From: an uncultured virus (IMG/VR IMGVR_UViG_3300035682_000026)
Lineage: Duplodnaviria > Heunggongvirae > Uroviricota > Caudoviricetes
DNA: 20,000 bases
IMG/VR virus record: IMGVR_UViG_3300035682_000026
Strand: one strand, 5' to 3'
The notes beneath the pieces were generated by a model. That model searched no databases, was not told the origin of the DNA, and saw nothing but the letters and a program-made list of their open reading frames with translations. This document shows, one piece after another, positions 2,863-14,196 of the stretch. Position numbers and translations under genes: made by a program. The first letter of the stretch is position 1, and every line of letters begins with the position of its first letter.

Positions 2863-3207
2863 TTATTGGTTACATTTGCAATTTCCACCACATTCACATG
2901 GGTTATCATCAGGTGTTATTTCTTCATCTAGGACATCCATTTCCGCAGCTATTGAAAACTGTTCTTTAATGTCCGCTATCATTTGTGTTACTTTTGCCAT
3001 ATCAGGCTCTGCCATAACTACAGGGTTAATACATTCGATTCTTTCTTCACCACGTGTTGGTAAAAAGAAAGCAACTGCGTTAGCATCTTTCTGTGTTATC
3101 ACATCATTAACCATATCAACAAATGGTTGTGCAATTTCTCTATTGCTTAATAATTCTATATCTAAATAGAATACGAGTACTAATGGGTGTTGTTTTTCTT
3201 CTGCCAT
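2863..3207 (-). CDS. Hypothetical protein with Cys-rich C-terminus
   Basis: 114 aa, ends CECGGNCKCNQ; 3-nt spacing to both neighbours. Confidence 0.8.
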   Translation of the reverse strand: MAEEKQHPLVLVFYLDIELLSNREIAQPFVDMVNDVITQKDANAVAFFLPTRGEERIECINPVVMAEPDMAKVTQMIADIKEQFSIAAEMDVLDEEITPDDNPCECGGNCKCNQ

Positions 3208-5229: not shown

Positions 5230-5843
5230 TTAAATAAAATTTCTAACGTATTGATTTCTATGGTATTTACATACACCTTTTTCTTTAATTGCAGCTATAT
5301 GTGATGGTGATAAGTATCCTTTATTGCTATCCCAATCATATATTGGGAATAATTGATGTAACTTAACCATATATTCATCACGTCTAACCTTAGCAACAAT
5401 TGCTGCAGCGGCAATCGATAAATAAGTATCATCACCTTTAGGTACTAATTCAACTCTAATATCACCAATATTATCCCAAACGGTTCCATCTAATAATATA
5501 TAATCTGGTGTTATTGATAATTCGTCAATACATTTATGCATAACTTTGAACGTGGCGGGATTTATGCCAAGTTCATCTATATCAGATACAGAACCAGCAT
5601 TACAAGATATGGCTAACGCATTATCAATAATTAATTGGTATGCTTCTAATCTTTGTTTTTCCGTAAGTTTTTTTGAATCTCGTAATAACGGTGATGAAAA
5701 ACCCTTAGGTAATATCACAGCAGCAGTTACTACTGGACCAGCACCACAACCTCTACCAATTAGCCCACCTCGTCAATGCCGCAGATAAAATCTAATTCGG
5801 CTAGACGAGGTGGAGCATATTCTAAAATTTTATTTAATTTCAT
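5230..5843 (-). CDS. rnhB: Ribonuclease HII, discontinuous: 27-aa ORF 5843-5760 plus main frame 5757-5230 (about 201 aa if the 8-nt gap is skipped)
   Basis: MKLNKILEYAPPRLAELDFICGIDEVG* then, in another frame, GRGCGAGPVVTAAVILP..RDSKKL..LLDG..KGDDTYLSIAAAAIVAKVRRD..NKGY..HR. Confidence 0.9.
5763..5816 (-). other. GC-rich mRNA hairpin in the 5' rnhB segment ending at the last sense codon
   Basis: CCACCUCGUC (5813-5804) pairs with GACGAGGUGG (5774-5765); nested GCCG/CGGC and AGAU/AUCU stems. Confidence 0.75.
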
Positions 5844-6084
5844 TTCTTTTTTTAATTATATAATCATAAATTCCCCAACCAGATACTAGAACCCAAGTAG
5901 CCTCTAAAATTATAAATGGTGTATATTTTATTAGAATTGAGGCGATGCACGCTAAAATACCACCAAATAAGTTTAGTAATATATAAAAAATATTATCATT
6001 GTCTAATTTATCAACAATGTTTAAAACAAAGCCAAATAACATCATTGTTACACCTATTGAACCTATTATATCATTTATTTCCAT
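5830..6084 (-). CDS. Small 3-TM membrane protein (CBU_0592/PQ-loop-like)
   Basis: Three hydrophobic helices; IGSIG, Y..LN..G and PFIILE..W pattern. Confidence 0.7.
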   Translation of the reverse strand: MEINDIIGSIGVTMMLFGFVLNIVDKLDNDNIFYILLNLFGGILACIASILIKYTPFIILEATWVLVSGWGIYDYIIKKRNEIK

Positions 6085-11610: not shown

Positions 11611-14196
11611 TTATTGTTTTTCTGTACTACTAACTTGTTTATCTATTTTGTCAATAATAAATTGAGATACCTTAGAAATGATTTCTAAGTTATTTTGTAT
11701 TCTTTCTTTGTTTGCTTTCCATAAAACTAAATATGTTGCATGGTGAGCTACTGGAATACCATAATGCTTCAACACAACGTAAGAAACACTTTCAGCTTGT
11801 AATTCTTGTAATTGATTTTTTTCTTTACCTTCACCATTATCGATAAAATATATAGAAGATTTTTTCCAGTGCATTAGTTCGTGAGCAATCTCGTGAATAG
11901 TAGTTGATAATCTAGCTGCACCTGATACATCTGATGATATATTAATATGGTCACCAGCACTATAACCTTTTTCTCCACCTTGTGCATCGCTTTGAGTTAC
12001 TCTAATACCTAAATCAGTAGCTACTTCAGATACAGCACCAAATAATATATCTGCAGTTTCTGATGGTGTGTTATCACCCCACCATTGTGGTGAATCTGGA
12101 ACATCACCTCTTTCATCAATAGGCTCTGTATCGCTAATGTCAAAAACATTAACCGCTCTAAATCTAGTTATTTGAGGTCTATTTGTCATACCCATTTGAC
12201 CCACTAATGCGGTTGTTTCGTCATCGTATTGAGTCATTTCTGGTTTACCAGCTGGTGCCAATACTTTGATTGCTTTAGCACCTTTTTTGACTCTTCTAAA
12301 TTTAGATTCCCATAATTTAAATGAACCAACTTTTGTTGCGTCTGGTCTTTGAATGAAAATAAGCATTCTATTATAGAAACTATAACTGTGGAATTTAGAA
12401 AAGAAAGTTAAATATCTTCTAATTTCTGCTGATAAAGCAGCTTCATCAGTTGCATTAGCTAAATCCATAATATATTGTTCAATTCTAGCTTTTAATAATT
12501 CTTTATTATCAGCTGTTGAACCTTCTACCGCATCTTCTAGGTCTTCTAATTCACCTATAATATACTCTGCTTTATTTATTAATGTAAGTGTTTTTTTTGC
12601 AATTTCTAATTTATCAGCATCAATAACCCAATTTGTACCATTCCAATTAAAACCATTTTGTTTTAAAACAGCTTTATTGTGAAATGTTTCTTGACTAGCA
12701 GCTCTACCTTCTAAATCTGATAATACAATAAGTTTACCTTGATTTTTATCATGTTGTAATTTTAATGCTTCACGCATTAACCCTTCGTTTAATGAAGGTG
12801 CATTTATGTTACCACTAGTTTTTTTAAGTTTTACAACATTATCAACAGCACCTGTACTACAACCACCGTTTTGAGCTTTTTTATTGTTATTTAATTTTGT
12901 ACAATCATCTAATTCAACAAAGGCACCACCAGACCATTGAGTTTTGGCTTGTGCTTTAGTTTTTTTTTTAGGTTCTTTAAATTCACCATTTCTACCTATG
13001 TTGGCAAGTCCTGGTGTGTCATATTGAAAATTACCAGTACTAGCAATAGTCGATTCATAAACAGTTTCGATTTTTCTTTTAATTGGTGTTGTACCCATTG
13101 GAGCTGTAAAAGCACCAGATGAACCACCAGCAGCACTAGTCATTTCATCTAAATCTAATTCTGTTTGTTTAGGGTCATTCCATTCACCATGTGGATGTTT
13201 AGAACCCATTGGTTCTCTAGATGCTAATTCTTTAGCTCTACGAGCTTGTATTTTTTTTTGAAGACTTTCCATATCTTCAGGAGTTCTTTCAGGATATTCA
13301 TTGCTAAAATCTTCTAGTCCTTCACTTAAACCAGACATGATAGTTTTAACTTGTTCAAGTTTTTTCATGAAAAATGGATTTAAGGGATAGATTTCACCTA
13401 ACTCATCAATCAACTCAATATTTAAAGGGATAAGAATTTTAGGTAATTCACGTTCTTTCTTATTAAGAAAGAAATTAATATCATCTTCAGTCATTTCACG
13501 ACCTTCATAATCAACACCATTATCAAAAAAATCTAACAAGAAAAATTCAGTGCCTTGGTTAAGTATTGCAATACCATCATTATATACAAAAACATCGTAA
13601 TCTGTATTGTTTTCAATAGGTTCTGGGTCTTCTTGATTTGATGGGTTATCAGGACTATGTGTATCGTATGTATCTAATTCTTCTTCTATTTCTTCCATTG
13701 GTTCACCAACAAATTCTCTCATAGTCTCTTCAATAGCAGCTTTAGCTTCTTCTTTGGTACCAATACTTTTAGGTACGATATAATTACGCCCTTTTTTAAC
13801 AATATGTCCTTTACTAGTTAAATACTCACATATTTCTTCGGATGATTTACCTTTTTCTCCAACCCAATAATCCGAATTAAATTCAGGTGTATAACCATAT
13901 AGATGTTTTAACAAATCTTTTATTTCTGTACTAATTTTATCAGTACCACCTTTTTTAGCTTCGTCTATATTATGTTTTGCTCCTAGTGGTTTTTGTTGTG
14001 CTCTAGGTAAATCAGTATTAGGTGCTTTAATATTAAAATTTTCATCTTCAGTTACTGATTTAATATCTTTACCAGCAAATGCTTGATTAAATGACTTTTG
14101 TACTCTATCAATACCACCTTTAATGCTAGATTCTTTAATCAAACCAGCTTTAATTAGTATATTATATTGTTCTTTTGTTATTTTAAGTTTTTTCAT
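11611..14196 (-). CDS. Multidomain protein: low-complexity N-terminal half plus ArdC-N-like ssDNA-binding domain and zincin metallopeptidase
   Basis: FSKFHSYSFYNRMLIFIQRPDATKVGSFKLW..RRVKKGAKAIKVLAP..VFDISDT; IHEIAHELMH..ELQAESVSYVV. Confidence 0.85.
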   Translation of the reverse strand: MKKLKITKEQYNILIKAGLIKESSIKGGIDRVQKSFNQAFAGKDIKSVTEDENFNIKAPNTDLPRAQQKPLGAKHNIDEAKKGGTDKISTEIKDLLKHLYGYTPEFNSDYWVGEKGKSSEEICEYLTSKGHIVKKGRNYIVPKSIGTKEEAKAAIEETMREFVGEPMEEIEEELDTYDTHSPDNPSNQEDPEPIENNTDYDVFVYNDGIAILNQGTEFFLLDFFDNGVDYEGREMTEDDINFFLNKKERELPKILIPLNIELIDELGEIYPLNPFFMKKLEQVKTIMSGLSEGLEDFSNEYPERTPEDMESLQKKIQARRAKELASREPMGSKHPHGEWNDPKQTELDLDEMTSAAGGSSGAFTAPMGTTPIKRKIETVYESTIASTGNFQYDTPGLANIGRNGEFKEPKKKTKAQAKTQWSGGAFVELDDCTKLNNNKKAQNGGCSTGAVDNVVKLKKTSGNINAPSLNEGLMREALKLQHDKNQGKLIVLSDLEGRAASQETFHNKAVLKQNGFNWNGTNWVIDADKLEIAKKTLTLINKAEYIIGELEDLEDAVEGSTADNKELLKARIEQYIMDLANATDEAALSAEIRRYLTFFSKFHSYSFYNRMLIFIQRPDATKVGSFKLWESKFRRVKKGAKAIKVLAPAGKPEMTQYDDETTALVGQMGMTNRPQITRFRAVNVFDISDTEPIDERGDVPDSPQWWGDNTPSETADILFGAVSEVATDLGIRVTQSDAQGGEKGYSAGDHINISSDVSGAARLSTTIHEIAHELMHWKKSSIYFIDNGEGKEKNQLQELQAESVSYVVLKHYGIPVAHHATYLVLWKANKERIQNNLEIISKVSQFIIDKIDKQVSSTEKQ

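Follow-up and report, generated by a model that had tools for sequence, protein, structure and literature searches.

How can a phage gene specify a complete ribonuclease HII when a stop codon and a change of frame fall inside the motif that holds its active site? The question is raised by an rnhB gene on the minus strand of the window, by which we mean the whole 20,000-nt stretch of viral DNA analyzed, itself part of a 62.8-kb virus record. Lake-water metagenomes hold this record, with at least half of its sampled words found in 19 of the 24 runs listed. From an ATG at 5843 the minus strand reads through to GAC GAG GTG GGC (GGC at 5765-5763), TAA (5762-5760), TT, GGT (5757-5755) and AGA GGT TGT. 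The first frame of the gene has 27 codons and then the stop, and the frame opening at 5757 runs for 175 codons without a stop, to 5233. The features of the region are as follows.

5830 to 6084, minus strand: membrane-protein ORF of 84 aa that shares 14 nt with the start of rnhB.
5763 to 5843, minus strand: ORF1, a cassette-type RNase HII N-terminus of 27 codons ending in D-E-V-G, with both strand-1 catalytic acids.
5763 to 5816, minus strand: 5' hairpin whose outer stem (5813-5804 paired with 5774-5765) ends at the take-off codon; z = -4.0 against dinucleotide shuffles.
5763 to 5765, minus strand: putative take-off codon GGC (Gly), the least used Gly codon of the contig (21 of 907).
5760 to 5762, minus strand: in-frame stop TAA immediately 3' of take-off.
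5755 to 5762, minus strand: coding gap of 8 nt, made up of the stop, 2 nt and the landing triplet GGT (5757-5755).
5230 to 5754, minus strand: ORF2, 174 codons and a stop, encoding the host-type rest of RNase HII, which begins at the Arg of the GRG motif.

The downstream frame aligns with positions 7-196 of the 199 in the Pfam RNase_HII model (E 2e-30). As evidenced by this domain match, the D-E of ORF1 and the DG, KGD and DSK motifs of ORF2, the gene belongs to the RNase HII family (PF01351). ORF2 is 97% identical to the intact protein P0002, and the closest intact proteins have 201 residues, exactly the 27 + 174 of the two window parts; this bears out the proposal, made in a reading of the sequence alone, that skipping 5762-5755 restores an enzyme of about 201 aa.

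An assembly error at the break, a concern of that sequence-only reading, is rejected. Runs X1 and X7, both flagged as possible sources of the window DNA, each provide a single contig across 5000-6500 that keeps the 8 nt, with no differences and no gaps. X9 was not counted as bridging because merely 22 nt cover one side of the site. The RNA-library run X24 yielded a contig (5679-5816; 3 other letters, no gaps) that retains the 8 nt at a low depth of 2.6 and with DNA carry-over possible; its two listed differences are both synonymous, one changing the take-off GGC to GGT. Chance or error is decisively rejected because 19 further distinct phage loci are broken at the same codon. The intact motif in the first 23 of 23 relatives had suggested a private lesion, which the pattern scans overturned. 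The 8-nt break GGC TAA TT GGT in the DEVG-RG motif is thus confirmed by the sequence, the contigs and a family of 27 loci, and it is real, conserved and mobile.

The 26 loci beyond the window came from pattern scans of viral and metagenome contigs followed by a tblastn filter, and the 27 gapped loci were collapsed by hand to 20 distinct ones. All are broken at the same codon and share 40-97% protein identity downstream. Gaps measure 6 nt in two of the 20 distinct loci, 7 in 13, 8 in four and 10 in one, and cover frames 0, +1 and +2. The stop codons at take-off are TGA (9), TAA (8) and TAG (3), the take-off codons GGC (18) and GGT (2), and the landing triplets GGA (7), GGC (7), GGT (5) and AGT (1). 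Comparison with the rnhB genes of related phages, which the sequence-only reading had recommended, therefore returned a stop after DEVG in 20 of 20 distinct loci, a second Gly codon in 19 of 20 and a variable gap length. Note that the stop was partly imposed by the search, as most patterns demanded it and three scans also demanded GAG GTG GG; degenerate scans yielded this codon string alone, and L077 and L263, the sole loci retrieved without the stop requirement, both have the stop. Downstream frames are open to full length save two ended by contig edges, and 18 of 18 full-length frames in distinct comparisons are free of stops. The first two pattern scans gave 77 matches, of which one was rnhB, and the scan of cellular genomes gave no rnhB among 64 matches. 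The 20 matches in GenBank phages were all below 60% identity. Ten further database proteins open with the out-of-frame residues R-W-A-x, the signature of a 7-nt gap.

Take-off and landing match by normal wobble in 12 of the 20 loci, including the window (GGC/GGT), and are mismatched in eight (seven GGC to GGA, one GGC to AGT). The proposal that a single tRNA-Gly(GCC) reads both codons holds for the former and fails for the latter. The protein P0176 moreover implies an Asp triplet at the landing position. In eight of nine loci checked the designated landing is the first downstream GG triplet, the exception being L328. These loose landing matches are the main unexplained feature of a bypass reading.

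The hairpin ending at the take-off codon sets gapped and intact genes apart. In the window it has a minimum free energy of -29.1 kcal/mol, and none of 300 synonymous recodings was equally stable. In each of the 18 distinct cassettes the folding energy of the 54 nt ending at take-off lies between -25.6 and -34.2 kcal/mol, whereas the same region reaches just -2.6 to -16.0 kcal/mol in 17 of 17 intact genes; no cassette had more than 2 of 300 synonymous recodings of equal stability. Found in every one of 18 gapped genes and in none of 17 intact ones, the hairpin is a candidate for a conserved mRNA stimulator. Its register is fixed and ungapped across cassettes. In the outer 13 pairs, 87.6% of cells are paired over the 18 cassettes and 0 of 500 shuffles reach the pairing or the covariation score, a test inflated by the relatedness of the cassettes; two-sided changes occur in only 2 of the 13 pairs. 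RNAalifold recovered the outer eight pairs. A-U/G-C exchanges in the stem alter the amino acid on the 5' arm. This arm also forces a Pro-Pro; of 134 intact proteins with a long enough N-terminus, only 2 have it at the same position.

The N-terminus encoded by the cassette has a history of its own. ORF1 shares 23 of 27 residues with the N-terminus of the gapped locus L197 (67% identical downstream) and only 17-18 of 27 with those of intact P0002-P0008, although these are 93-97% identical downstream. A second clade behaves likewise, its closest intact proteins differing in the N-terminus. The gap travels together with a replacement N-terminus. A single gapped clade was rejected (p-AU 1.8e-5) on a 32-row tree whose intact rows were picked as nearest neighbors of the gapped rows. 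Since gapped genes occur interspersed with intact sisters (97% identical for the window), the cassette is mobile. Uninterrupted close relatives, along with relaxed dN/dS in the window copy, had been named as grounds for dismissing a functional gap. Such relatives do exist, 93-97% identical and intact, but since the N-terminus differs too they reflect a mobile cassette and are no refutation. The insertions look recent, with the window at 0.03 substitutions per site from intact P0002 and the element flank of L308 and L309 identical at 102 of 107 positions. Three intact RNase HII known as proteins only (P0010, P0024 and P0216) have cassette-like N-termini, possibly through precise gap loss following invasion.

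An endonuclease-like ORF is adjacent in 11 of the 20 loci and absent from seven, the window included; two contigs are too short. In these 11 it lies directly upstream and in ten it overlaps the new rnhB start. Six are of the GIY-YIG/NUMOD3 type (three by scan, the rest by evident similarity), one is Vsr/NUMOD3 on the opposite strand and four belong to a weakly DUF559-like family. The Vsr-like ORFs of L077, L164 and L220 score under the Pfam cut-offs, and an Atlas search with the Vsr-like domain gave leads only to hypothetical, DUF559 and DUF2726 proteins. From their sequences the adjacent ORFs are probable homing endonucleases, GIY-YIG or Vsr-like. In three Vsr-type loci, all of the DUF559-like family, the old 5' exon of the host gene is stranded upstream, ending in D-E-V, D-E-V-G or D-E-V-G-R, and these ends therefore mark the insertion site; no conserved C-terminal extension was seen on the stranded exon. 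The left end of the element in L313, L331 and L220, just after the stranded exon, opens with a short second G-L-D-E coding copy, perhaps the remnant of an earlier target site. In L309, L323, L337 and L344 the endonuclease has been deleted, leaving tail remnants with different endpoints, and the gap is kept. The window has no endonuclease, its place being taken by the 84-aa membrane-protein ORF that also lies upstream of intact L002, L007, L015, L016 and L021. This arrangement would follow from either a loss running exactly from the old gene start to the new one or a transfer of only the recoding part.

Is the interrupted gene under selection? Six gapped pairs have a downstream dN/dS of 0.013-0.068, similar to intact pairs; this is weak evidence because the insertions look recent and independent, the gapped genes being polyphyletic. 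Within the cassette, the codons between the outer stem arms have pN/pS of 0.11 and 0.34 in two clades, and Glu, Ile, Gly and Asp are invariant under synonymous change. The N-terminal segment of the cassette is thus under purifying selection, while inner-stem pairing itself may constrain the same codons. D-E-x-G-x-G occurs in 149 of 150 distant representatives and in 221 of 240 closer proteins, the remaining 19 lacking the N-terminal motif altogether; no natural insertion within the DEVG-RG motif was seen in the 390 proteins. In the RNase H2 of T. maritima the GRG loop is described as sensing the 2'-OH, and G21S as reducing activity (PMC3025331). L329 and L341 encode an intact RNase HII with G-W-G replacing G-R-G and have no hairpin arm. 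Three of three CheckV-complete gapped genomes, of which two lack an adjacent endonuclease, have no RNase HII match other than the gapped gene, and a search of five records returned no RNase H1 in any of them. A weak search (E 0.001, 19 candidates) found no full-length protein combining a cassette-like N-terminus with inserted residues. In nominally intact L021 the frame shifts by 1 nt within a T run (3050-3065) about 20 codons past GRG, reflecting either an assembly error or a pseudogene, and rnhB may therefore be dispensable or the assemblies imperfect; L021 rows were left out of the dN/dS because of it.

What is established here, namely the sequence, the family, the hairpin, selection on the N-terminus, mobility and the linkage and loss of endonucleases, is best read as programmed ribosomal bypass that probably shields the gene from an endonuclease, and such bypass is the most likely mechanism of expression. 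The short-gap hop of the sequence-only reading accordingly has the best support among its suggestions (variable gaps in three frames, three stops, the 5' hairpin and endonuclease linkage), and the hop itself is what we infer from them. A mobile 'endonuclease plus recoding' cassette would invade phage RNase HII genes at the DEVG-RG codons, bringing a new 5' end of the gene, the hairpin, a duplicated Gly codon and a stop. The short insert alters the DNA of the insertion site and, to judge from T4 mobA, would probably block cutting by the endonuclease. During translation the ribosome would stall with peptidyl-tRNA-Gly on the GGC/GGU codon and the stop in the A site; the peptidyl-tRNA would detach, the ribosome slide 6-10 nt and the tRNA re-pair at the host's own Gly triplet, and translation would pick up again at Arg to give the full-length enzyme. 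As the outer stem forms only once the D-E-V-G codons exit the ribosome, its zipping would ratchet movement forward. In the window the endonuclease is missing and the recoding part is left.

A simple footprint model gives a steep drop in the folding energy of the exiting mRNA 5-13 nt past take-off. For the window about 13 kcal/mol are gained by 8 nt with a 9-nt footprint and 6.5 with a 12-nt footprint; the latter gives little gain at 6-8 nt, which counts against an exit-driven slide. Wills et al. (bioRxiv 10.1101/2024.12.09.627546) proposed for T4 an exiting-mRNA driver that this hairpin model resembles. According to the text available for T4, P-site re-pairing has latitude, with take-off and landing always readable by one tRNA (Manning & Atkins bioRxiv 10.1101/2022.08.31.505936). 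GAGGUG sits at Shine-Dalgarno (SD) distance, 6-10 nt before landing. A role for it is doubtful because SD motifs are avoided at phage gene starts (1 of 49 versus about 10% background) and ribosomes of Bacteroidia are reported to sequester the anti-SD (PMC10798248); the gapped phages may infect Bacteroidota. Bearing on anti-SD availability, one gapped genome of five records encodes ribosomal protein bS21 (G003:C1 40696-40851).

The cassette could instead be a selfish knock-out that protects itself and inactivates, or nearly inactivates, a dispensable gene for which host RNase H compensates. Because the insertions look recent, decay may still be invisible; L021 has its unrelated frameshift, and L328 and P0176 show drift of the landing triplet. 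We nevertheless consider this unlikely, as the catalytic strand comes with the cassette, in a copy that stays conserved while its codons vary synonymously, a costly hairpin is pointless if the protein is absent, the 18 full-length downstream frames are free of stops, and the gap outlasts separate endonuclease deletions.

Frameshifting or stop readthrough, with the motif tolerating two to four extra residues, is quite unlikely. Simple shifts are described as much commoner than hops (PMC5009743), and the window has a slippery G-GGC ahead of the stop with the -1 frame open. Different members, however, need -1, +1 (or -2) or readthrough, and the products would carry LIG, NG, EG, EFG or XG in a motif without insertions among the proteins examined; in L328 a Ser would take the place of the invariant Gly. 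For the window, LIG would be inserted, as the sequence-only reading had correctly foreseen in stating that a plain -1 shift adds three residues. Because the gaps fall in frames 0, +1 and +2, one hop explains all members and no single frameshift does. An amber-anticodon tRNA, encoded by two relatives, was considered as the cause and rejected, since it cannot account for TAA, TGA or shifted frames. The two large phages concerned carry, according to ARAGORN, a CUA (amber) anticodon tRNA and an unusual tRNA-Gly(ACC) (L415:771-844, L421:4305-4380, L415:3505-3577 and L423:4953-5026).

Removal of a 6-10 nt micro-intron from the RNA by a phage or host nuclease and ligase, with the base of the hairpin as guide, fits a hairpin that stops exactly at the junction, and would make non-Gly landing triplets harmless. 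It is very unlikely, given that the gap lacks a conserved length or 3' motif, that the use of three different stops suggests selection at the level of translation, and that the sole RNA-library contig, at low depth and with the carry-over noted above, retains the gap. Rfam gave no match up to E 0.5 in nine sources, namely the window and eight further loci, and no ribozyme core of a group I or group II intron was thus detected. The micro-intron or intron remnant offered by the sequence-only reading is thus not borne out.

Finally, a split protein, with the 27-aa peptide joined in trans by a C-terminal fragment made through re-initiation, is highly improbable. Possible starts do exist, an in-frame ATT ahead of the landing triplet where the gap is 8 nt and an in-frame ATG in some loci with 7- or 10-nt gaps, and a nrdA split by endonuclease insertion has been described (Manning & Atkins bioRxiv 10.1101/2022.08.31.505936), but five of 20 loci have no in-frame start in the downstream frame, the start varies between members, candidate starts lie within or beside the hairpin, and these phages avoid SD motifs.

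Programmed bypass of this kind has a close parallel in T4 gene 60/MobA, as far as the available text of two preprints describes it (bioRxiv 10.1101/2022.08.31.505936; 10.1101/2024.12.09.627546). Both systems have an endonuclease cassette at an invariant active-site Gly, a cassette-encoded new N-terminal segment overlapping the end of the endonuclease ORF, a stop right after a Gly take-off codon, insertions that arose repeatedly and independently, and endonuclease swaps (GIY-YIG, Vsr) with frequent loss and retention of the gap. The linked homing endonuclease lost in some members, typical of MobA, thus seems to recur at rnhB (11 of 20 adjacent, seven without). The target, however, is RNase HII here and the gene for the topoisomerase large subunit, with a CTE and an NTE, there, and the gap is 6-10 nt rather than 20-50 nt. 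T4 gene 60/MobA is described with a take-off stem-loop and a mini-SD inside the gap, and the rnhB gap contains neither. Conversely, rnhB has a long conserved 5' hairpin ending at take-off, whereas the 5' structure of MobA is not reported as conserved. At rnhB the whole N-terminus is replaced, while the T4 enzyme is split into two subunits, and the landing match is looser.

The nearest short-gap precedent in the literature available to us is the terminase of Streptomyces phage Hau3, likewise with a short (10-nt) gap in a phage gene and a slow A-site codon (PMC10732093). For Hau3, mass spectrometry is reported to have demonstrated the bypass in E. coli, using a cassette with a UAA substitution (PMC10732093). 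Hau3 has a hungry UUA as trigger and a proposed regulatory role, unlike rnhB with its true stops and variable gap length, and the available text mentions no homing endonuclease, which is linked at rnhB loci (PMC10732093). L311 (GGC TAA GGC) and L322 (GGC TGA GGA) resemble the synthetic 'stop-hop' (PMC5009743): in both loci Gly codons flank the stop, and the 9 nt would yield one residue. A 2016 review states that natural in-frame stop hopping was not known (PMC5009743); from their sequences, L311 and L322 would be candidate natural stop-hops. The byps of Magnusiomyces mitochondria are likewise mobile short inserts neutralized by bypass with imperfect landing tolerated (PMC5009743, PMC7026636). 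They differ in being mitochondrial, affecting many genes and having an unused A-site codon and a take-off hairpin, and the accessible text of both sources mentions no endonuclease linkage, which rnhB loci have (PMC5009743, PMC7026636). In a literature search that covered mainly open-access papers and the main text of preprints, we found no prior account of such a gap or bypass in RNase HII.

Other features of these genomes are recorded here for completeness. Outside the window, at G000:C1 8165-10010, a phosphoesterase that looks SbcD/Mre11-like by its motif is seemingly interrupted by a 301-aa ORF that divides it in two; neither junction shows a short gap, and it is possibly another endonuclease-split gene. 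The same contig carries several GIY-YIG-like ORFs, judged by eye, and encodes a tmRNA and ten tRNAs (33443-33816 and 34864-45091). The window also encodes an 861-aa protein (11611-14196, minus strand) whose C-terminal third contains an ArdC N-terminal domain.

Only a handful of systems are known to use programmed bypassing. If our reading is true, rnhB would add a second, independent endonuclease-plus-bypass cassette and reveal a repeatable route by which selfish nucleases enter active-site codons without introns or inteins. Gene callers truncate gapped rnhB, as with the ten database proteins that start R-W-A-x. The 20 natural variants in gap length, stop and landing around one fixed hairpin form a test series for sliding driven by exiting mRNA. 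We lean toward an independently evolved minimal bypass module of large aquatic phages whose hosts are probably SD-blind: a 54-nt coding hairpin, a rare Gly codon and any stop, moved among RNase HII genes by at least two endonuclease families, would carry the ribosome 6-10 nt forward almost irrespective of frame or codon match, and would include natural in-frame stop-hops.
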